A stretch of DNA of 63,992 bases, filler included, from Hausera hauseri (taxonomy: Eukaryota): the NCBI GenBank assembly GCA_046269625.1. It is 12 parts of 12 records of this genome, joined end to end, with 100 filler letters (N's around TTAATTAATTAA, not from the genome) between each part and the next. Parts side by side here need not be neighbours in the genome. Positions count along the whole stretch, not along the records: positions 9,677 to 14,332 come from JBJURY010487687.1; 11 more parts are not named here. The stretch is one strand, 5' to 3'. A program made the position numbers and the translations under genes. The notes beneath the pieces are model-generated. The model saw only the letters and a list, made by a program, of their open reading frames with translations, made no database searches and was not told the DNA's origin. Shown one piece after another: positions 2,088-21,381 of the stretch. Numbering within the stretch: position 1 is the first letter of the stretch; each line of letters begins with the position of its first letter.

Positions 2088-3555
2088 TTACTGTTCACTT
2101 GCTTCCGGAGTACCTTGGGTTACGTAAGCTCTAACGCCCTTTTGTTTACTTTGTACCTTCTTGCCTTTTTCGTTTTTTGTCGTCCGTGGCATTGACTCCT
2201 CTGTTTTAATGCCTATTGTGTTCTCACATGAATTTTCCATATTTCGCCCTACGTCCCTGTTGTCATAACTGTCTTTAGCCTTTTCCTCGCTACCAATTTT
2301 TCCATGTAGGAATCTACAATTATTCCCATATTTACGCTCTTCTTTTTCGTAGTACCAACATGTCCTTTTTTGCACATTTTTACTAGGTTGATTTAAGTAT
2401 TTACAGTTTTCTGCAAATTGGCATCGACCGTTCTTTTCATAATTCCAGCATCTCTGGGGCCGATCTTCGCGTTGTATATTGGGGCTGTTAGATTTCATCC
2501 CTTTTCAACTTCTCGATCATTTGTTTCGGATTTCATGTTTTCATACTCTCTCTTTACAGCCTGTGATCCTTTTGTAAAGTACGATCTTCTATATTCTACT
2601 TATGAATATCGACCACATTGACTTGTGTTAAACGTTTCTATCCCTCTTACTCTCTCTATGGTATTCCTTCTGACCACTGCTTCTATTTCAATCCAATTCG
2701 TGAAGTATATGACTGTCCTACCCAACTTTTTTTCAATGATATGTCTTTCCCATAGTAGTACAATTGATTCCGGGAGCTTCTCCACAAGGCTTTGGTACAG
2801 TAGTCCTCCACTGAGTTCTTCATTTCTCCCCAGATTCTTCAGTCTTACAATTATCCCTTCCAACAACGCTACAAATTCGTCTAGCCCTTTAATGTCTTCC
2901 TTATATATCGCCCGGAACCTTATGACTTCGGTCATGAATGCTGCATAGTAACGTTGTTCACCTCCATAATAGGAATCTAATTTCTCCAGGGATGTCTTTT
3001 ACCCTTCTTCTGATAGGTCGAAGTCTTCTATCAGTCTTTTCGCCTCACCATACAAACGCTGATTCAGCTGCAGTAGCTTATATATTTCCGACATCGGGGT
3101 TTTGTGGATACAAAAGTCAAAGGTCCTTTTCCATTTTTCGTATTCTGTAACTACCCTCCGAATTTCGGCAACTCTAATTTTTGTAACTTTGGTAATATTA
3201 CCCTTTCCCTTCTTTCCTTTTCAGACCTTCCGTTAGCGGTCATCATTTTATTTTCTATTAAGCTTCTCTCGTAGATGATCGCATTGATTTTTTCGTTCTG
3301 CTCATCCAGCTTCTCCATATCATATTCCAGTATTGTGATGTTCTCCCTTTTCCTCAACTTTCTTGCTGCGATAGCTAATATACACAACTCCGCTTGAAGT
3401 TCGGTAAATGCCTTGTCATATTTTTGGTGATATATTTCATATTCTTGATCACACAAGTTTGCATCCATCAACTTCCTTCGAATTGTTGAGAGATCACTGA
3501 TAAACTTACGTCGCCAAGGTAGTCTATTGTCTAGTTCTTCTGCAGTTAACTCGCT
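2088..3555 (-). pseudogene. gag: BEL/Pao gag (coiled coil, DUF1759-like capsid region, two CCCH-type zinc fingers)
   Basis: LELPKFGG and EKLPESIVLLWER (ORF 2600-2935). Zinc fingers CWNYEKNGRCQFAENCKYLN and CWYYEKEERKYGNNCRFLH (ORF 2088-2498). Confidence 0.8.
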
Positions 3556-4005
3556 TCCGCCCTTTAACCGCAAATGTAAATAAATGGTCACATCTTTTTG
3601 AATATTGTATTGGCTAAGTTTTCTACCGTCCTTCAATTGTATCCGGTCAGTGACCAACTATTTTATCCATAAACGTATCAAAGCGATATGTCATTTTCAT
3701 TGAATGAAAAATGAATTAGTTTGCTCTGTAACAGGTCCCAACTTTTGTGGAATCGTGTCCCTCTTTTATAATGACCAGGTAACTGGTGACCTCGCCTATC
3801 ACATTGACCCATTTTAATAGAATAAATAAAATACATTAATAATTTGATACTTTATCAGCATACATCGCCATTACACTATAGTGGACCGATTATTTTCTTT
3901 GCCTTGTTGTTCTTGTCAGACTGTATTAAATATTTTAACTAGCCTTTCTACTGCGGTTGTTATTTCTATTATTGTTGTTCCTGTTACCTGTATTGTTCTT
4001 ACTCT
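3556..4005 (-). pseudogene. Ubiquitin domain fused upstream of BEL gag, interrupted by an insertion
   Basis: QLKDGRKLSQYNIQKDVTIYLHLRLKGG matches the ubiquitin C-terminus [28 protein letters not shown] and reads in frame into gag. A weaker N-terminal-half match (VRTIQVTGTTIIEI...LKYLIQ) lies beyond the 3662-3875 insertion. Confidence 0.8.
3662..3875 (+). mobile_element. Solo-LTR-like insertion with 4-bp target-site duplication (CTAT)
   Basis: CTAT at 3658-3661 and 3876-3879. Ends in ATTACA, with an internal TATA-like motif and AATAAA. Removing it rejoins the ubiquitin frame, leaving a TAG at the junction. The 5' end is TT rather than TG. Confidence 0.5.
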
Positions 4006-8750: not shown

Positions 8751-10036
8751 TATATAATCCTTATATCATTTTGAATAAAGCATTTCAAGTTTCGTCCTTT
8801 TACTGTAGCCAAATCTGTTTCTGCTGTCAACACGGAAAACAAGTGTTAAGAAGAACGAAATTAAACTGCGCCATATTTAAGCCGGTCTTAAATGTCTTAA
8901 GCTGCTTCTCATTTCCATGTAATAAAAAGTTACAAGGATCTTTGGAATTTGCTTTGGTAAGGAATTCTTTATAGCCTCATATTTAAACATTTTTCTGCTT
9001 TTACCCAACATTCGAGCTTTGAACGCTTATTTCTCACAAGAATATGCCAACCGTAATTTTTATGTCTTTTTTGAATCAATATGTGGAATCAATTGTTTGG
9101 GTGCATAACTCCCATAGGCTTATTGTTAAATGGTGGCGTTTAAATGCTTTGTTGTTAATATTGAACGACGTTTCAACCAAATCCGAAAGACGTATTCAAT
9201 TATTTTAATGCTGATTTTATTAATTCAAACAATTTTCAATCAGTGACAGAGAAGGTATTGAACCACGTCCTTTCATTTTAAATTTTACTTCAATTGACAT
9301 TATTTCACTTCTACACCCAGACTTTGATGCAATTCTGTATAATCAAGTAATTTTGTACGCTAATTAGAAATATGCAAATTATTTTTCTTATTATGTGGAA
9401 ATTTCTGAGTTCTGAATAATAAATTTTTATTATCGTTACTACTGGTATACGTTATTACCCAATGTGAAATCAAAATATTTACAAAATTACATTGCTTCGT
9501 TTAATAGACTAATGAGCATACGACGGTCAGATATTACACACAATTTTACACAAACCATTTTATATTTGGAAAGGATNNNNNNNNNNNNNNNNNNNNNNNN
9601 NNNNNNNNNNNNNNNNNNNNTTAATTAATTAANNNNNNNNNNNNNNNNNNNNNNNNNNNNNNNNNNNNNNNNNNNNGATATGTTAACCTCTAAGACACTT
9701 GAATGAAATAATACTTATATAGAAACATCTTGTGTACCATATACAACACCCACATCATATAACTTCTATAAAGAATCATCAACAAAATAATAAGAAATCA
9801 CTAGGGAATATATCAAGGTGATAAGGAATCAGTAGGGAATATATCAGGGTAATTAGGGAATATATGTGCAATATAGGAAAGGAATATATGGGTAACATAT
9901 GAGGAATATATGTGCCGTGTGTGTTTGTCTGTATGGGTAAAATGCAGTAAAGAAAATGTATAACTAAGATATGTGACTGTGCGCATATTCATGTGTGTGT
10001 GTGAGTAAAGATGTGAGTAAGAACCCGCATTTTCCC

Positions 10037-10790
10037 CTACTTTTTGATATCGGCTTTTTCCTTGTATCCTTGCAATTCAATATTCAGTATACACTTTAAA
10101 CAATCATCATCGGATACGTGAGACATTTCGCGACCGATAAAATCAAACAGTTTCATTTTCTGCGCTGGTAAATCGACAGATTGCTGTTGCACAATCGTTT
10201 CGTTTAATTTTAAATCCACGTTTAATTGATGTAGAGCATCAGAAAGTTTATCCAAAATTTCACCCTAAAGCCGTTTTACACGATAGCTGTACTTGGGCGC
10301 ACATAGAGACACTGGATCATTCAATGAAATCATTACGGGCGTTTGCAGAAAATGCATTTCATATTTGCGAAAAATTCGTTTCGGTAAAAATGTCTCTGTT
10401 TGACACGACGGTTTTGGTTTTCGTTTACGTATTCCAATCATTGCATTTTGCCTTTTTAACTTCGGTTTTGCTGTTGCTGATTTCTGAGAAAGTTCAATTT
10501 TCGTTTTCAGACAATCGCCCTGCAGATAATAGCCATTAAAAAGTTTTTCTAATTGCTGGACAGGTTCTGTTTTCGTTTCCAGCAGTTTGACATCAGAATT
10601 GTCCTTTTTGTAGCCAAACAACCACGACCAATCTGAACTTTCATCATTCACACAAGTACCATTGAGTAGAATCGTTTTATCGCCGTCTTGAATGGCAATA
10701 ATGTCTGAATGAACATGGGAATGGTATCTATAGTTTGCTGTGCAATGTACATTATTTTGATTCACTAAAACATTTATGTGGTTTTTAATG
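10037..10790 (-). CDS. Hypothetical viral-element proteins (ORFs 10265-10816 and 10037-10255)
   Basis: Compact ORFs co-oriented with the TBP-like gene; no recognised domain. Confidence 0.35.
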
Positions 10791-11215
10791 TAACTAATAC
10801 TCGGTTCATACTTCACTGTCCGAATATCGAGTACAATTTTTCTACTGCTAAATGCATTGGCACAAAGTGGGCGAAACGATGTCAGTCACAGTGCGGGAAA
10901 CAGTTCGGATTCAAACGTACACTTAGCAGTGGCCATTGCTAATTTGTACAGATTGATTCTTTGGTAGAGTAACTGAGTCACTACCGTTATTGACTGAATT
11001 TAGTCCATGACAATTCCAAATGGTAGTAGTTTACCGTTGTCAGCTGTGATTGGTTTGCGATAACCCATAATACGACACTTTCCTGATTGAAATACGATGC
11101 ATGTAAAATCCGGTGGACACTTGAGGACATACTGCCTCGGTTTCCATTGATTAAAAGGTAGTGTGTCAATGTCATACTCGGTAACATGTCCGCGATAGTT
11201 GATATTAGCTAACAT
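10790..11215 (-). pseudogene. Divergent TATA-box-binding protein (TBP)-like gene
   Basis: One frame with two stops: ...FTCIVFQSGKCRIMG...*IQSITVVTQL..RINLYKLA...FESELFPAL*L...FSSRKIVL. It echoes both TBP repeats (IFSSGKMVCTG; IQNMV..IRLEGL..YEPELFPGL..FVSGKVVL). Confidence 0.72.
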
Positions 11216-11310
11216 TATGGAAAGTGTTTATACAATAGCTATATATGTGTGTAACACGATTATAAACAAATCATGTGAGGCAATGTTGTATGATTATTAT
11301 TATTAGTTAG

Positions 11311-11958
11311 ATGCAGCTGCAGAATGACTCAATTATCCAGATTGTAGGCTCAAGTGGAAGTGGCAAAACGCACTTTGTGTGTAAACTATTGCAGAACTAC
11401 CGTGACATGTTCCATTCACCGCGGTACAATCATATTTACTGGCATCAGTATGTTGATGATGGTGAGTCCGGTTTTACACTGGGAATTTTGTAAATTAAAA
11501 TCGATGACGGTAAATGAGGAGTTTGATGAGGACTGGTCTGAGAGATTGCATAATGTTGACGTTATTGTCATTGACGATTTATTTCAAGAGGCCCCGAAAC
11601 AAACCAGACTTCAACAACCTGTTCACGACGATTGCACGACACCATGGTGTGACGGTTATTTTCATTACGCAAAACATGTTTTATCAGGGCGGACAGCATC
11701 GAACACTATTTAGTGTTGTTCAAAAATCACCGTGATTAGACTATCATTGATTATGTTGCACGACAAGCATTTCCTCACAACCGAGCCTACATGATAGATG
11801 CATATCATGATGCTACGACCGAGCCACACGGCTACTTCTTCATTGAATTTACTACACAACAGTGTCCCGATGACATGCGTGTACGAACAGACATTTTCAA
11901 TCAGAAAGGTGTGTCTATAAACACATTCAAAAATCGACATAATTATGATAAAAATTAA
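11311..11958 (+). pseudogene. A32/FtsK-like DNA packaging ATPase of a Polinton
   Basis: Walker A GSSGSGKT, Walker B VIVIDDL, ARHHGVTVIFITQN, VLFKNHRD, HGYFFIEF, RVRTDIF. Frameshifted. Confidence 0.9.
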
Positions 11959-12159
11959 GCATTTCCGAAAAACATTTATTAAACGTAAACCTACTTAGTG
12001 GATGTCAGGCAACAAGAAACGTGTATCAAAACGAACCGCTACAGTCAAGCGATTAATCAATTCTGTGCTTCGAACAACAGCAGCAGCAACTATTACCGTC
12101 TCAGTGGCAACGGTTATAAGAAACTACGTCTCATCAGCATCAATACGTCCTAAAAATAT

Positions 12160-12477
12160 GATTCAAACGTAGTCAACCTTACTTCATTGCTTTGCTCAAG
12201 GCACCTACGAGACATAAGCGAAACATGCTACGATTATTCCCGCAATTTGTAGTAAACGATGTTATGGAAATTTTGTACGATATCGCTGTGTCACGTTGTC
12301 ATTGGTAGTGGAAAGCGGAATTTATTAAAATATCGAAAACGGCTCACTGGCCTTGCCAACGCGCGTAGCAAACGACTGAAATAAGAGGTCATGTATCAGC
12401 AAAATGGCGGATTCCTTGGTGCAATTCCACCAGTTGTCACGTCATTACTGGGTGGAGTCATTGGTGGTACAGTTTAG
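12160..12477 (+). pseudogene. Small Polinton virion/core-type protein with C-terminal QxGGFL motif
   Basis: Ends YQQNGGFLGAIPPVVTSLLGGVIGGTV* after a basic segment, and lies directly after the ATPase. Confidence 0.55.
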
Positions 12478-12539
12478 TATAATCAATGACGGTAATTATA
12501 TGACGATTACAACTCCTATCTTGCATTGGTTTTGAGACG

Positions 12540-13147
12540 GTTCGGTGTAAACCGAACAATTCGGTGTTTCACAATACAAGGTTGTACTCGTTGAACGATT
12601 TAATCAAACCCTACTCGGCCGACTGAACAAATTCTTTACCAAGCATGGCAATAAACTTGGTAGATGAACTACCGGATATTATCCATGCATACAATCATTC
12701 GACACATCGTGGCATGAATGGATTACGGCTGGTGGATGAAATCGATGATTTTTTACACGTAGTTTTATCAAAACCGAACACGACGACGACGACGACGATC
12801 ACCTAAACGTCCCAAGTATAAAATCGGTGATTTATGTACTTATTTCAAAGCTGAGTTCGACACCATTCATTAAAAATTTCAATCAGAACTGGAGCAATGA
12901 GGTTTTCCAAATTTCAGAAATCAACAAAAAACAAATACCTGCTATGTACGTTTTAGAAGATGAAAATAGTGACGAAATACGTGGCAAATTTTACGAAAGA
13001 GAACTGCACGTACTACCGGAAAAACCTGATGTGTATCGTATTCAGGAAATTCTACGTTCACGCAGCAAAGGTTCTAATAAACAATGTCTCTTCAAGTGGC
13101 ATGGATACACTACACAGAGTTGGATATTTGCATCGAAGATTGAGTGA
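12540..13147 (+). pseudogene. Polinton retroviral-like integrase C-terminal half with chromodomain
   Basis: VERFNQTL..AYNHSTHRG; KYKIGD.V.ISK..F.K...QNWSNEVF; GKFYEREL; chromodomain YRIQEILRSR...CLFKWHGY...SWI. Confidence 0.85.
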
Positions 13148-14110
13148 TGAGCATTTATTTGGTACTCGATAGTAACAGATTATTAGAACATGACAACAAT
13201 ACAGCTGAACGGTTTACCATGGTGTTGGACCAGCCGCTCGATTTACGCCAGGGAGACTGGGAAGTGGCTTTTGTGGAATTCACATTTACATTTTCACCAA
13301 TAACAATACGTGAGAACAGTGGAATATACTATACTCTACTAAGACAATCTCCTGCATGTAGTCGTTTGCAGTTAGTCCGAGACTCTAATGGAACATTTCA
13401 CGTTCACAATTACAAGCGGCAATATTTCCTGGTTTATATTTTTCATTTAAACAATCGATTGGCGCGAAAACACAAACATCCGATTGAATAGCAATTTAAA
13501 TAACTAGCCGACGCTTAGGCATGGAGTCTACAGCTCGGTGGACATAGTATAATTAGCAAAAATTCGAACTTTTCAATGAAAACCATCGATATTACAGTGA
13601 CCTGGCAAAAGACTGAATCATTCTTTTACTCTCATACAACAGGAAATGGTTTTCTTACGGAAACGGAAATAGAATTGTGCGCAACCATCAAGATTGTAGC
13701 TAAATTGGCTCTGATGGTCGTATTTCGTTTACACTATATGATAATGTAACATATTTTGACTTTGATGAACTATTGGCACGGAATCTGGGTTTTAAGGAAC
13801 GAGAATTCGGTCAAACAGGCGGCGGACGGCCCATTGTTGCTAAAAACAAACCATCTCTCTACGGAGCATTTCATCGAATTAATATTTTAACGGATCTAAC
13901 CGAACCCGTATATGTTAGCAGAGACCGAAACAACTATTGACTTTTATTGGACTGGATCCGGACACATACAAAACACCGGGCGAAACTGCTCACGTAAATG
14001 TCATCCGACCCATGTATTTATCGTTGTCTCAGAATATTGTTCATAGTATTTCCGTGTATATCGTAAACGATTTTTGGAAACCCGTTAAATTTCTGTTCTT
14101 AATTTTCGTC
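13144..14110 (+). pseudogene. Polinton minor capsid (penton)-like gene
   Basis: N-terminus IYLVLDSN...NNTAERFTMVLDQPLDL..GDWEVAFVEF. C-terminus PMYLSLSQNIVHSISVYIVND..KPVKF. Confidence 0.72.
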
Positions 14111-14172
14111 GTCGTCGTCGATAATAAACAAAATGCGTCATCACTATCATCATCAACATCATCATCGAGATC

Positions 14173-14332
14173 ATGAGTATTTACGTAGTGTTGCCGAGCA
14201 ACAGTTGTCCGACGACTCGTACTTTGGATTTATCTTGAAAATAGGAGATTGCACCGACGGAATTTAACTTTCCCTACGCACCGGTGACATTGAAAGGTAG
14301 TATGAAAATAACGTACAACAAGACTGTTACTG
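14173..14332 (+). pseudogene. Second penton-like gene start (truncated)
   Basis: MSIYVVLPSNSCP parallels the start of the 13144 gene. Confidence 0.5.
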
Positions 14333-14432
14333 NNNNNNNNNNNNNNNNNNNNNNNNNNNNNNNNNNNNNNNNNNNNTTAATTAATTAANNNNNNNNNNNN
14401 NNNNNNNNNNNNNNNNNNNNNNNNNNNNNNNN

Positions 14433-16186
14433 GGCGTAATAATAGCGGTCAAAATTTTACAGGAAAATCCAGTTAATGTGAATATCTCATACCCATTTAT
14501 GACAGCTTGAATTACTGCTTTGAATAATTGGACTAAGAAGTAGATGGCCAAAAATCCTGATGCAGCTTGTCCGAATATTAAAAACCTTCCCCACATTTTA
14601 TACAATATCTCTGAAGTTACTCTTTGATAATGGTTTGCGCCCAATAATGATTCCCATTTTGCTTGGAAGCGAGTGTCATCCATGACCATTGACATGGCCC
14701 GATTTAATTCATAAGTTCTTTGTCGTGGGAATGCTAAGAATTGCCTAAAAGCTTCTATGTCCTTTGGCCTATAAATCCCTTTACTGGCCGTATCTTCGAA
14801 TTTCTCTTCTGATAATCCTTTGATTAGATTAGTTCCAGTTAGTTTACTTGGGGCTGTAGTTGCGCCTCCATTAGGTAAACTTATCCAATTGTTTCCATTG
14901 CGGCGGAACATAGGTTCGCCTAGACTCGTTTTACATTCTTTTAATATTGTCGGTTCCGTTGAGTTTGCTAGAAGTACTCTAGTAAGTGGCATTGCTAACC
15001 TTGGTACGTTTTCATAAATTACAGGTAATTCTTGCATGCATCTCTTCTCTTCCACATTAATCGGTACGTCCTTTTTCTCACATTCGTAAGTAAGTAGAAC
15101 TTCTCCGGTAACTCGTCCGAATACGCCTTCCTTCATTGGTATGATCGGCGATGCTAGTTCTGGATTAGCGTAAATTAAGGCCAATTTAGTTCTCATGATT
15201 TCGGTATCCAATCGACAATCATTAGTGATCATCTTATGGTATAGTTCTGCTATTCCGGTTTGTCCCTTGTAATAAAAATAATCGTCTCGATTTTTGAGGT
15301 AATCTTCGATTCGTATGTCTTGTGTCTTCAAATCGTACGTTTTCATATTGATTTCGGTTTCCGCCACAAAAAATGCTTCGTAGTTTGTGGCATACATTAC
15401 TACATCGCAACGTGTTATCATATCCTTTCTAATGAATTTTAATCCATGTGCGTCAGATATTAATATCGTAGGTGTGGGTTGCTCCGCTACATCTTTCCTT
15501 GATCTTGTATCGGTATGAACTTGGTTGATATAACGTTTTCCAGTTGTCTCATTAAATGTTAACTCTTTGACTTTGATAAAGTTACAGTCCCCTTTTGATG
15601 GCGGATTCCACACCACGACTGAGCTTCGGAATGTACAGGCGCCATCTTGAAGGTGGCATTTCGGATTTTCAGTGAATAGTTTAGTGGTACTATGAAACAT
15701 TGCTTTTAAAGATCTCACCTCGGTTTCGTAAAAATCTACAACTACTACTCCTGCTTCTTTTCCTTTCCCAGTATCGTAATCTACCCCAACACAATGACCA
15801 GTATGCATATTCAACTTCCCAGCTGCTACCTTATAAGCCCGAATTATTTTTCCTTCTTGGGCTTCTAATTCCATACCATCCCAAACCATTTTATTAGTTA
15901 GCCGTGCTCCTAGACAATGTTGTCGATCTACATTCATTGGGATTAGCGGGGTAGTCGGCTTAATAATTGAAGAATGTCCGTACATGGCACCACAATGGAA
16001 TATGCTGCGCGATCTACGTATCATACATTCTGTTGCTTCCATTGCAATCAACTCTTGTTGTTGGTATAATATATATTTCTTTTCTATGGTGTCCAACTTG
16101 TGGGGCCTTGCATCTTCGCATGTTTCTAAGTCCATCAAGGAGTATTTTTGACCTACCTTAAATTTGTCACAATCGTATACAGTGAC
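14433..16186 (-). other. env: Chuvirus-like (class III-type) envelope glycoprotein domain
   Basis: VYDC..YSL.DLETC at the start; HCG; GEV...ECEKKDV...CMQELPVIY...P.TRVL; GIY...D...F.QFL.FP; membrane region WGRFLIFGQAASGFLAIYFLVQLFKAVIQAVINGYEI...GFS. This matches the chuviral G pattern as I recall it. Confidence 0.82.
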
Positions 16187-19100
16187 CGCTCCCATCTGCT
16201 TTACCAGCATAAGTATTGTTAGTAGGTTTATTAGCCAATTCGATTCGTTTCCTTTGTTTGAAGAGATTTTTCGGACCATTTCCTCTAGGTCATTAGTTCT
16301 TTTCCTATTATCTTCCTTTTCGAATAGTTTAGTCCATTTTATTTCTTTAGGTACCCTTTTCGCTGCCTTCCTTGCTAAGCCTATCGATTTTTCTATTTCA
16401 TTTTCCCGAAATGGGTTAGTTCTTACCGCCAAATATATCAATACCTTTCTTAATTCTTCCGTTGTATTATCTATCATAATCCGATCGATTACTGCTTCGT
16501 CAGGAAGAGTACTTTTGGATAATTTAAATCGTGAAGTCTTCATGGTACGTGCTATATTATATATTAGCCTTTCTTTTTCAGAAAGTGTATCCCCTTGTAG
16601 TCCGGTATAGTTGACTATTCTTATCAAGTCCTTCATTAGCTCGACTAATTCTTCATTGTCCGAACTTGGAGTTGGTACTGATAGTTGCCTTAGTTCTCTA
16701 ATTAAATCTGCATTATGATCCGCTTCTTTTATTTTTCTCGGCCTTCCAACCGGTCGTTTTGGTTTTGTTGGTGGCATAGTTTCACTTAACGGAACTAAAT
16801 TCTTATCATATTGAGGCTTGTCGTCGTCCGTTTGTAAATATTCGAAATACATCGCAGCGTCATGAATTCCCATAATTTTTCCGACACAATGTTCGGTATG
16901 TGCCTTTCTTATAGCTTCGTCTTTGGTCTGTTCGCTTGTGATTATCGCTACTATCCGGTTTGTTTCGAGTGGTATGATCCCTACATCTATTAAATACTCG
17001 GGTTCGTCCAGTATTCTACCTCTGAAATAGAGTCGATAGTTGACTCCTTCCTTACCCTCTTTATTTATTATTTGTTGTTTTATGTCTCCGACGGTGGTAT
17101 ACGTAGTACATTCGAACTCCTCGTCATCTATTCCTTCAGATGATATCTTTACCTTCATTTGCGCTTCCGGTTTGTTTTTCAACAATTTGGCGTACTCTTT
17201 TATCAAGAGTTTAGGTACGGCGCTATACGCAGTGTTCTCACTGGATAATTTAGTCAAGGTTGGAATCAACTTCCTCAATTTTTCTTCACTTGTGTTTATT
17301 CTCAACATGTTACTCAGTTCCTTTTCAGCTAGTATAGGATCTAGTAGCATTTGCGCATCAAATTTCGTCTTGTGTGTACCAACAGGCGACTCATAAATGT
17401 GTATTGGCGTTCTCGGGTTCTGTTCCGTTAAACCCTGGAGATATTCGTCCCATTCGGCTTCGTTATCAACATCCGGTAACTCCAGGTTTGCTAATGCCGC
17501 TTGTCCTACTTGGACTCTTTCCCGTAATTCGCTCAATTGTGGTTGTAGTATTTTCATGATGGACACCCTAAATCCATCTCTGCTTCCGCAGGCTTGTTGT
17601 ATCAGTTTAATTAGTCGACACATTTCCTCTGGCTGTATCAAGGCCTTATCTTGGTAATTGGTCACTTCCGCGATCCTATCAACTTGCCATTTCTGTATGA
17701 ATTCTGCTTTGTCATTCAATTCTGTTTCTGTCAAAGAATATTTATTTTTATAACTTTCTGCTTCTCTCAGTAATTCATTTATTTTCAGTTGTCTTCTCTC
17801 AGAACGTAGTCGGGTTTCTTTTATCAGACGTATGCGGTCGGTCAGTCTTTTTGCTACTGCTTCATCAATTTCTGCCATTTCGGTCAATAATAAGATTAAT
17901 TTCTGGATTTGATTAAGTACCTCAGCATCTGGATCTATCGCGTCCATTAGTCTTCTTATAAATTTTACTTCCTCGCTAGTCAGCTGCAAGTCGTTTATGA
18001 TTTCCGTTAATTCGGAATGACAAGATAAGTCAAATCCTGGTGACCATCCGGCTGAGTTTTGTATATACTGTAACGTCTGTGCTATGGCAATCCGGTGGTC
18101 CTTACACATTTCTAATGTTTCTATTTCCTGTATGGAGATTTCTTTTAGTGGTTTCTGTATCAAGTGCTGTATCCCTTCCCAACGAAGATTTACTAAACTT
18201 CGTTGGAGATCACTTAGCTTGTTTCTTTTCTTATAAAAGTCTTTTTCTTGTATGATCTCGTATATTTCTATCATCGTTACTTGCTCTTGAGCCTGATTTA
18301 TGAATTTGAGTTCTCGGTATGATTCGAATTTAATTCGTAACTTCGCTTCATCCTGCATTGTACCGATATCTAACAGCATCTCTTCCAACTGGTGTTTCAT
18401 TATTGGTTCGGCCACAGCAAATTCTCTTAACCTCTCTTTTATTACTCCTGCTATTAAAGGTAACAAATCTGTCCACTTCTGCAGTTGTTTGGTTATTAAC
18501 GGCTTCATATATATTATTTCATCTAATGCTTCAAGAGCTTCTCGTAATTTGTGGTCCGGTCCTCGTACAAATTCTATGATTTGTTTTATATAGTTGAATT
18601 CTTCTTTATATTCTTCTAACTCAAGCAGACAAGAACGTATTACTCTCTGTACCTCTGTATTTTCGGAGTCGATTATGCCGATCCTTAAATCGTTGATTTC
18701 TGCTCGCATCTCGTTTTCCTTTTGGATACGTGTCTGTACATCTGAGTATTTGTGAGGCTTATCTTTGATTAAGTTACACATTTTCAATAAAAAGAAGATA
18801 TCGGTTTGTTCTATATTCAGTATTCTCAAATCGACTTCAGTCAGTTCATATACGGCTTTATTATGTAGGTAAGAATTTATAGCTTTCTCCATCTCAATCA
18901 TTAATTCTTCTAAGTTCCGTCGTACGCGTTTTAATTTTGGGTTAGCCTTTAGTGTGTCTAACAATCGTTGTGCTTGGTTTACTTGACCGAGAAATGGTTC
19001 GTTTTTATTCCACCATATTTTCGTAAAATCGATATTATTTGTTGTCCATAGTTCTAATTTATCTTGCCAATCTTTTATTATACGTAGTTGTATTTCCAGC

Positions 19101-21037
19101 GATTCACATGGTATGGCTTCTTCGCCTTTCTGTATGCCAGTTTTAATCTTTCTATATAACTTTTCTATAAATTGTTGCTCCTTTCCGGAGATATCCAGCT
19201 GCTTACTAAATTGTTGTAGCTTTTGCAGGTTTTCGATTGATTTTTGCGGATCGTCCAGAGTATCTCTTATTTCTGCTAGCTCATCCGCATTTTTCCAAGA
19301 TTTTCTGATTTTTCCATAAGCCGTGGATTTCTCTTCTTTTGATTCCTCTTCGCTAGATGGTAGTGGACATATTTCATTAATTTCGTTGATATTTACGATA
19401 CTTGTGGACTCTGGGACTATAATAGGAGTATTTAGCTCCGTCTCATCTCGTAGATTGATAGTAAAGACATCCTCTATTACATCCTTCTTAACAGGAGATC
19501 GTGAACGGGTTCTTGACCTTCTCCTAAGAGAGGGACTTCTACCTCTATTCTTGGTTATTTTAAGTATTAATGGTCCGATGAATTCGCTCTCAACTTCATC
19601 TGCTGTTTTCTCTTTAGCTGGAGTTACGATCTCAGTATCTGCATCCAAGTCTATACTCGGAGATGCGGTCGATTTTTCTTTCTTTTCTTCCTTTGCTGGT
19701 TGATCTCTATTTTTCTTCCTAGCCATATTAGTACCTTTAGGCGCTATAGCCTTTTCATATTCCGTTTTTGGTTCTCTTAACCCATGATAAACTTCCAATT
19801 GATGCAACTTCTCTTCATACTCCTGTCTAGCCTTAATTACTTGCGGATTATTAGATTCACCCATATTCCTTACATATCGTCGTAAATCTTGCATTTCAAT
19901 AATCATACTTATATCTCCTCGCTTTCCGTAAATTCCTTCTAGATTCTCTTTTATCATACTAGCCTTACTAGTCTCTGCAAATGATACACTTCGTGGGTTA
20001 GGACATGATCTAGCTATGTGTCCTTCTTTGCCACATGAATAACAAATCAAATTCCCATCGCGTCCGATTCTTTGTCTTCCATCTTCATTTACTGGTGATT
20101 TAGGTCTACCAGTGTTTTTATTTTGAACTGATTTATCGATTCCATTATTTCGATTTTCATAATTCCGACTTCCCGTATATCGATTCTTGTTATATCGGTC
20201 ATCACTTCTGTCCGGATTATAACTTGTTTTACCATACATGTCTGTACTGTAACTTGTTTTATTATACATGTTCCTGTTATCATATCTCGTATTGCGATTG
20301 AAGGTATTTTGAGCTCTATTCTCATATCCTCGATCTCTATTACTGTCATTGAACCTTTTATTACTCCGGTTTCTATCTCGATTGTCACGGTCATTATTTC
20401 GTTCATATCTATCATTCTGTTTGGCATATCTATCCAGTGCCATTTCTAAATTTTGAGCTAATTGTAATGCCGTTTCAAAATTATCTGGCCGAGCCAAGAT
20501 TAGCTGCTTAACTAAATCTCTAGACCATATTCCGTTTATCAATTGCGTTGTCATCATAACATCTAAATCTGGTGGACTAGCCTTTTCTGCCGCTTCTCGT
20601 TCTGCATCTGTTTTCGCTTTTGCTGCATTAGCTATTCGTAACGTACTTACATAACTATTGGCCAATTTTTTTAGTGCAAATGCAAACTGAGTAACTGACT
20701 CGCCCTTTTGTTGAGTTCTATTCTGAAAAGCCATAAGCTTCTGTTGCGGCGTAACTGTCGGCAATAATTTACGATTTAAGGCTCCTACTAGGGAAGACCA
20801 TGATTTCTTCTCATCGTTAGTTAATTCGCTATATGCGTCTGCGGCTAGATTTTTCAAGTATAGAGATAATCGCTTAATCATAACTTCTGATGCGAGGCTG
20901 GCACCTTCTGCGTGCAGTTTATAAGTCCGTAAAAAGTCGTTTAATCCATCTGGATCTCCGTCATATGCGGGTAAATTTAACGAATCGAACGTAAATATAT
21001 CAAGTTTCTGAGCTACTGCTGGGTTGTCTGCTGCCAT
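14433..21037 (-). CDS. Polyprotein: Ty3/Gypsy-type Gag (CA + CCHC) - helical spacer - ubiquitin-like - AT-hook - signal peptide - chuvirus-like glycoprotein
   Basis: About 2,200 codons with no stop; first ATG at 21037 (frame open from ~21238). Gag: LPAYDG, YLKNLAADAY, W..L..AL..K, QQKGESVTQFAFALKKLA, P.NFETALQLA; CYSCGKEGHIARSC at 20003-20044. UBL at 16940-17158; KRPVGRPRK at ~16733-16760; hydrophobic signal at 16187-16237; Cys-rich glycoprotein from 16186. Confidence 0.92.
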
Positions 21038-21381
21038 TTTAGTTTTATTTAATTTGTCTACTTTAGTTTTACGAGGAACTTTGAATTCTTGAATTAGGTT
21101 TAATTCCGTATCGGATAATTGGTTTTTATCTATTGTCTGGTTTTTAATATAAAATTTATTGCGAGTTTCTCTTTGACTATCGTTTGCCAATAAGTTTTGA
21201 TAAGAATTAGCTCTATCAATGTTCGCTTTCAGCTTGAATTATTTATTACCCTCTATCAACTTATATTCCCAAATTTTAGATTCTCAAATCTTCCTATATC
21301 AATTACTTGATGTGAGTGGCGCTATTCGCCGGTGTGTCGTTATTTGATTTCTCAAAAGTAAAGTCTAGCGAGGCACAAACT

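Follow-up and report, generated by a model that had tools for sequence, protein, structure and literature searches.

Viral TATA-binding proteins (TBPs) are already known from herpesviruses and giant viruses. KSHV ORF24, a vTBP of the beta/gammaherpesvirus type, is a 752-amino-acid protein that binds RNA polymerase II (Pol II) directly, does not carry the TFIIB-contacting glutamates and needs five more viral factors, and the late promoters of the herpesvirus vTBP system carry the sequence TATTWAA (as described in PMC12529657). In nucleocytoviruses, the TBP is in most cases accompanied by a TFIIB of viral origin, and its stirrup residues vary, with approximately 40% conservation at C.L3.2 (PMC7221094). 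For Polinton-like elements, the only entry that we found among the papers searched is in Starrett 2021 (PMC8502044; preprint 10.1101/697771), where the legend of Fig. 5 has a 'TBP' label in MELD viruses with an adintovirus-like PolB; one supplement of that paper contains neither 'TBP' nor 'TATA'. The MELD viruses are alike in having a TBP-like gene in a Polinton-like element, but the legend entry comes without analysis, and the gene may or may not be of the family described here.

The TBP-like gene that we describe, carried by a decayed Polinton fragment and by 56 related metagenome loci, shares with the herpesvirus system the presence of a TBP-fold protein in a virus without its own RNA polymerase (none was seen in the related loci), a short variant TATA box common to late genes, and the replacement of the residues at positions V122, T124, V161 and L205. 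Unlike the herpesvirus vTBP, the Polinton protein is a bare 150-residue core in which the glutamates are kept (in 95% of the best 120 of 366 proteins). A search of its surroundings gave no partner factor; the gene most often found next to it encodes a single-stranded DNA-binding protein (SSB). By inference, the Polinton TBP would work like the herpesvirus late system without being a member of it. The fold is also common to the nucleocytovirus proteins, and giant-virus TBPs are numerous among the 24 BFVD matches obtained at E ≤ 0.001; in contrast to these, the Polinton family keeps both glutamates in 95% of cases, and the related loci, most of which are short, revealed no gene resembling TFIIB. 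In the reading that we favor, with a probability of roughly 0.55, a Polinton lineage carries its own TBP gene, whose product would be a late transcription factor that reads a YATAAACA box and recruits host TFIIB and Pol II.

A decayed Polinton fragment in Hausera hauseri

The window analyzed here is a stretch of 63,992 nucleotides from the H. hauseri assembly GCA_046269625.1, in which separate contigs are joined by N spacers. The contig under study (9677–14332, 4.7 kb, JBJURY010487687.1) is bounded by such spacers, and tblastn searches with related intact proteins identified it as an internal fragment of a decayed Polinton/adintovirus, whose genes are all damaged by stops, frameshifts or deletion. 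It includes broken copies of two genes that characterize these elements, an integrase and an A32-type ATPase. The A32/FtsK-type packaging ATPase (11311–11919, plus strand; E = 5e-49 across three frames) carries stops and frameshifts, and its relatives match Pox_A32 above the Pfam cut-off. Of the rve integrase, the C-terminal half with its chromodomain is present with three stops (12566–13144, plus strand), and tblastn did not find the N-terminal ~170 residues on the contig; its relatives match rve and Chromo above the Pfam cut-offs. Between these two genes lies a broken core gene that is probably PW/protein-X-like (12138–12474, plus strand; E = 4e-21), a relative of which matches Adeno_PX weakly. 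The 3′ part of the contig holds a broken penton-like gene and the start of a second one (13096–14332, plus strand; E = 4e-10 and 2e-4), 'penton' being a presumptive label based on gene position, without any library match. The same tandem pair is seen at L025:5616-7687. On the minus strand, a broken gene for a T7 gp2.5-type SSB (10043–10402; E = 1e-10) lies downstream of the TBP-like gene; the model of this SSB family superposes on Enc34 SSB and T7 gp2.5 with Z values of 8.4 and 8.0 (rmsd 2.8, 103–105 aligned residues). The same tblastn searches revealed neither pPolB nor a major capsid gene on this contig.

The TBP-like gene itself occupies 10727–11215 on the minus strand, and its frame is interrupted twice, by stops at codons 72 and 110. 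Read from the ATG at 11215 with X at the stops, it matches Pfam PF00352 in two stretches with 27.5 bits (cut-off 22.9), and the five best rows of a phmmer search against the PDB are all TBPs, albeit weak (E = 0.012–0.66). The initial annotation had placed the gene at 10790–11215; the frame from 11215 stands, but homology reaches further at the 3′ side, to an approximate end at 10760–10727. Three intact relatives were found among eight candidates, two of which (P0003 and P0004) are 71–73% identical to the window copy and group with it with a support of 99 in a quick tree, where the window copy has a branch of 0.34 versus 0.05–0.08; it also retains 25 of the 31 family-conserved columns. As every gene on the contig is broken, the TBP-like gene decayed together with its neighbors, and the window copy is dead, with no present activity.

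The head-to-head arrangement with the packaging ATPase that had been described for this locus holds precisely, with start codons at 11215 (minus strand) and 11311 (plus strand) separated by a gap of 95 bp (11216–11310). In sequencing run X1, 29,475 of 15.5 million contigs map on the contig under study at ≥80% identity, most of them at 90–99%, and in run X2 1,471 do so; together they cover all 30 bins of the contig, depth in these runs not being equivalent to copy number and X1 possibly being the source sample. Since some of the X1 contigs run from the TBP 5′ end into the gap, or link the TBP gene with the ATPase, the layout is not an assembly artefact. The run search returned two runs with the sequence and listed no RNA run.

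Other contigs of the window carry LTR-retrotransposon pieces and a MANEC-domain exon, which would point to an animal genome. Among them, an open frame of 2285 codons (14381–21238, minus strand) combines a gag that has a zinc knuckle with a ubiquitin-like segment and with a fusion glycoprotein of the Monjiviricetes type (224 bits), and gave no match to a polymerase domain. A ubiquitin-like piece is also found in frame ahead of a BEL/Pao-like gag region at 3151–3657 (minus strand).

The TBP-like family, its fold and its linkage to Polinton genes

Of 2972 candidates, 366 matched a family profile built from seven intact relatives at E ≤ 0.001, and the best 120 of the 366 were analyzed. These have lengths of 125–224 residues (median 150), and none is from an NCBI or UniRef source. 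The intact relatives score 63 bits on PF00352, above the same cut-off of 22.9, and the profile matches TBPs in the PDB with E = 8e-22. The model of P0003, calculated with 120 alignment rows (pLDDT 96), displays a two-lobed saddle with a ten-stranded sheet, and gives 44 PDB matches at E ≤ 0.001; among the matches listed, all are TBP chains, aligned over both lobes, and Foldseek TM values versus full TBP cores are 0.58–0.72 over 152–184 columns. The TBP fold proposed in the initial annotation is thus borne out. Its two-repeat signature is accurate as regards the two-lobed fold, but the first repeat is not full-length, being shortened.

Family members resemble cellular TBP (PF00352) in the saddle, in the length of the C-lobe (47 versus 48 residues in the corresponding span) and in the YEPELF stirrup with both glutamates. 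They differ from it in their size of ~150 residues, an identity of 25–33%, a long tree branch and the N-lobe, where two spans of 36 and 21 residues correspond to 47 and 34 in cellular TBP and are thus 11 and 13 residues shorter. The shortened segments are those that bear helices H1 and H2 in the cellular protein, and the P0003 model has no N-lobe helix of at least four residues, in contrast to the canonical arrangement of four helices, two per lobe. Both stirrup glutamates of the C-lobe, which form the TFIIB contact according to Ravarani 2020 (PMC7221094), are retained in 114 of the best 120 sequences; the same source, in its description of TBP surfaces, assigns to the N-lobe basic patch the contacts with TFIIA, TAF1, Brf and Mot1.

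On the DNA face, we compared the family with the yeast contact list in Table 1 of PMC12529657, the mapping being by eye and least sure in the first 30 residues. Equivalents of N69, F116, F190, P191, F207 and V213 are kept. Those of V71, V122, T124, N159, V161 and L205 have given way to fixed N, R, M, S, T and N, respectively, in 90–100% of the 120 sequences. Three of the four intercalating phenylalanines are kept at 99–100%, and the fourth (F99 position) is apparently a lysine (77%), although here the positions were matched by eye where the hhalign alignment is poor. The second of the paired asparagines is a serine in 97%, and the family thus departs from the canonical set of four phenylalanines and paired asparagines. 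Polar residues that have become fixed in this way would point to an altered preference for DNA sequence rather than a loss of function.

The linkage between the TBP gene and Polinton genes extends to other copies. Among the 56 metagenome loci, a core Polinton gene is present in 22 (14/21 when only loci of at least 3 kb are considered), and a core gene or a recurrent neighbor in 50. Loci L014 and L025 hold an ATPase, an integrase, capsid-like genes and pPolB alongside the TBP gene (phrog_1907 for the L014 pPolB, E = 5e-20), and L038 additionally encodes a protease (Peptidase_C5, 32 bits); the protein-primed PolB and the C5 protease are found in relatives only, neither being on the window contig. 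Conserved genes of 403–427 and ~340–400 codons stand in the order expected for capsid and penton and gave no Pfam, PHROG or PDB match; the capsid, penton, PZ and DEDD labels used for the relatives are presumptive, being based on position. When IMG/VR was scanned with the TBP, ATPase and capsid proteins as queries, no locus of Polinton type emerged, one scan yielding two loci with near-canonical TBPs, and the family had no match in phage records.

The commonest neighbor of the TBP gene is group c1, present in 22 loci (L014:1788-2138 and 21 others, in addition to 10043–10402 of the window). It has the T7 gp2.5/Enc34-type SSB fold (Z 8.0–8.4, the Foldseek match alone being weak), and we rejected it on this basis as a candidate transcription cofactor. 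Groups c12 and c16 weakly resemble SSB as well (hhalign E = 4e-5 and 5e-4), and some TBP-bearing elements may have several SSB-like paralogues. In three loci (L014:1502-2138, L008:1140-1841, L013:2374-3085), a stretch with a GT closes the short acidic ORF c5, and an AG ~50 nt further on precedes the start of the SSB ORF, so that the two look like one spliced gene. Some elements also carry a secreted or membrane leucine-rich-repeat (LRR) gene (L035:1918-3330, L049, L032 and L043), preceded in 3/4 by the YATAAAC box described below, and a Cys/His-rich gene of ~160 codons, which gave no Pfam or PHROG match and whose start we presume to be DEDD-like, lies between the protease and TBP genes (L038:5870-6355 and 14 other loci).

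In both trees that we calculated, the family forms its own side with a support of 100 and a very long stem that joins the rest at an open fork; in the quick tree, which includes archaeal and other TBPs, this stem measures ~2.8 changes per site. Viral sampling amounted to 20 rows, with giant-virus context verified for one TBP (L002) and six other 'N' labels guessed. The phylogeny with host and viral TBPs that had been proposed for this gene therefore separates the family from other TBPs, but names no donor, given the open fork on the long stem. A much more divergent branch of this family (length 1.5–2.4) occurs at L054:1-540 and L057:747-1238, directly before an ATPase of another type. In addition, a 5.8-Mb contig entered under a bacterial MAG (L063; contig C2 of G001) contains an intron-bearing, fungus-like TBP gene and a TFIIB gene, which suggests contamination of that MAG.

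Of 946 pairs within the family, 35 have a usable synonymous distance; their dN/dS ratio has a median of 0.20 and a maximum of 0.46, the pairs not being mutually independent. These values bear on whether the window gene could be a functionless passenger derived from a piece of a host TBP gene, or a neighbor by chance. The window copy is indeed broken, but so are all genes of its contig, the related TBP gene stands in one open frame in 44/56 loci, the ratio is below 0.5 in 35/35 usable pairs and the family has its own side of the tree; we consider this possibility to be very improbable.

Two promoter classes in related elements

When 7-mers located 15–63 nt before start codons were ranked, with near-duplicates removed, the top word before ATPase, PW, integrase, penton, PZ, capsid and protease genes was ATAAACA, in 25/48 cases versus 1.2 expected; this count and those that follow are not independent, as the loci are related, and the gene classes were set after viewing the upstream sequences. 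TATAAAC precedes 21 of the 48 late-class genes, versus a mean of 0.7 and a maximum of 4 in 2000 shuffles. Gene by gene, YATAAAC is found before 10/11 ATPase, 6/9 PW, 5/7 capsid, 3/7 penton and 1/5 PZ genes, and before none of the integrase (0/6), protease (0/3) or TBP (0/32) genes. It also precedes genes that we did not class as late, namely DEDD-like (6/9), c12 (SSB-like, 3/4) and c1 (3/18) genes and the majority of c14, c17 and LRR genes. Other words, GTATATA and TATATAA, rank first upstream of TBP genes, SSB-like genes and further small genes, and an initiator-like word, TCATAAT, lies close to the ATG of TBP genes. These data show two promoter classes: packaging and capsid genes are preceded by the box, and TBP and SSB genes by TATA/initiator elements of the host type. 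A role of the TBP-like protein in late transcription would fit this pattern.

The distance from the box to the ATG clusters at 32–39 nt, and that to the upstream stop codon scatters from −60 to 191 nt. This pattern, together with the head-to-head case in the window, led us to reject the box as a poly(A) signal; in the window it is not one, because the ATPase there has no upstream gene on its strand.

The position and orientation of the box also bear on whether it is read by host factors, either host TBP, taking it as a TATA variant, or a forkhead protein, with the viral TBP doing something else. The forkhead consensus is RYAAAYA, which includes ATAAACA, the top 7-mer. TATAAAC is one base off common TATA boxes and might be read by host TBP, and the IMG/VR scans found no TBP-less Polinton for comparison. 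On the other hand, the forkhead-type GTAAACA, the box in reverse orientation and TATAAAA were each found in 0/48 cases, the box being strand-specific; its distance to the ATG is fixed, and the early genes of the same elements have the different, host-type TATA with the TCATAAT word. Reading by host factors thus appears unlikely to us, and we favor the viral TBP as the reader of the box.

In the window, a TATAAACA box of the same type as that before the relatives' ATPase genes lies 50 nt before the ATPase ATG (11261–11268, plus strand), within a stretch (11252–11271) for which no difference is listed in the deeply covered bins of X1 and X2. A second TATAAACA points toward the TBP gene, 17 nt before its ATG (11225–11232, minus strand), at a trough in depth where the copies differ most. 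A palindromic TATATA (11240–11245), whose minus-strand start is 30 nt before the TBP ATG, is a candidate host-type TATA by comparison with the relatives. A further TATAAACA box is found at the end of the ATPase gene (11916–11923, plus strand), 29 nt before the ATG of a small Lys/Arg-rich frame, which weakly matches a similar ORF of the relatives (E = 0.078).

The initial annotation had pointed to TATATA and TATAAA in this gap and spoken of a bidirectional promoter. Both words are present (at 11240 and 11261), but we rejected them alone as evidence, the gap being 74% A+T and 8% of 20,000 shuffles holding both. The complete TATAAACA occurs on the plus strand in 0.5% of shuffles, and on both strands in none of 20,000, a test that was made post hoc. 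This last result would speak for a single shared promoter, read by the viral TBP and driving both TBP and ATPase genes, as would the X1 contigs that span the TBP 5′ end and the gap or join the TBP gene to the ATPase, which indicate that the layout is real in the family. As a general feature, however, a bidirectional promoter is not supported: TBP and ATPase genes are on one strand in 13 of the 15 related loci that hold both and divergent with genes between them in the other two, and the box precedes 0/32 of the relatives' TBP genes. The head-to-head arrangement is thus local and not conserved, and with the minus-strand box only 17 nt from the TBP ATG, where the copies vary, a shared promoter seems quite improbable. 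The gap at 11216–11310 is better read as two back-to-back promoters.

The minus-strand box, which is too close to the ATG for a normal promoter, could instead indicate a decoy or repressor, in which the viral TBP would occupy TATA-like DNA or tie up TFIIB against host or early viral transcription, or would mark integration or packaging sites. A dominant-negative protein would also be suited by kept TFIIB glutamates and a lost regulator surface. Such a box is nevertheless absent before 32/32 related TBP genes, and when particle genes have a box of their own at the distance of a promoter, an activation site is the simpler reading; we regard the decoy as distinctly unlikely, and retain transcriptional activation of late genes as the favored role.

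A proposed early-to-late switch

In the mechanism that we propose from the sequence patterns, host machinery would make the TBP and the SSB early, from ordinary promoters. The viral TBP would then bind the YATAAACA box and use host TFIIB and Pol II, starting the packaging and capsid genes; use of host TFIIB is proposed because the family retains the stirrup glutamates, whereas the loci showed no TFIIB-like gene of their own. Without the N-lobe surface, the viral protein could escape control by TFIIA, TAF1, Mot1 and Brf1, and the particle genes would thereby be timed after replication. As a whole, a one-protein early-to-late switch in animal Polintons, with the smallest viral TBP, a YATAAACA box of its own and direct use of host TFIIB/Pol II, is a tentative proposal, to which we give slightly less than an even chance.

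If true, DNA viruses would have a third route to late promoters of their own, besides the routes taken by herpesviruses and by giant viruses, and a timed viral cycle in Polinton 'transposons' would be strongly indicated. A natural minimal TBP with altered DNA contacts would also be a tool for learning which TBP surfaces transcription start needs. The interest lies in the family and not in the dead window copy: it bears on whether particle production by animal Polintons is timed as in true viruses, for which one small protein and an 8-base motif would offer a direct test.
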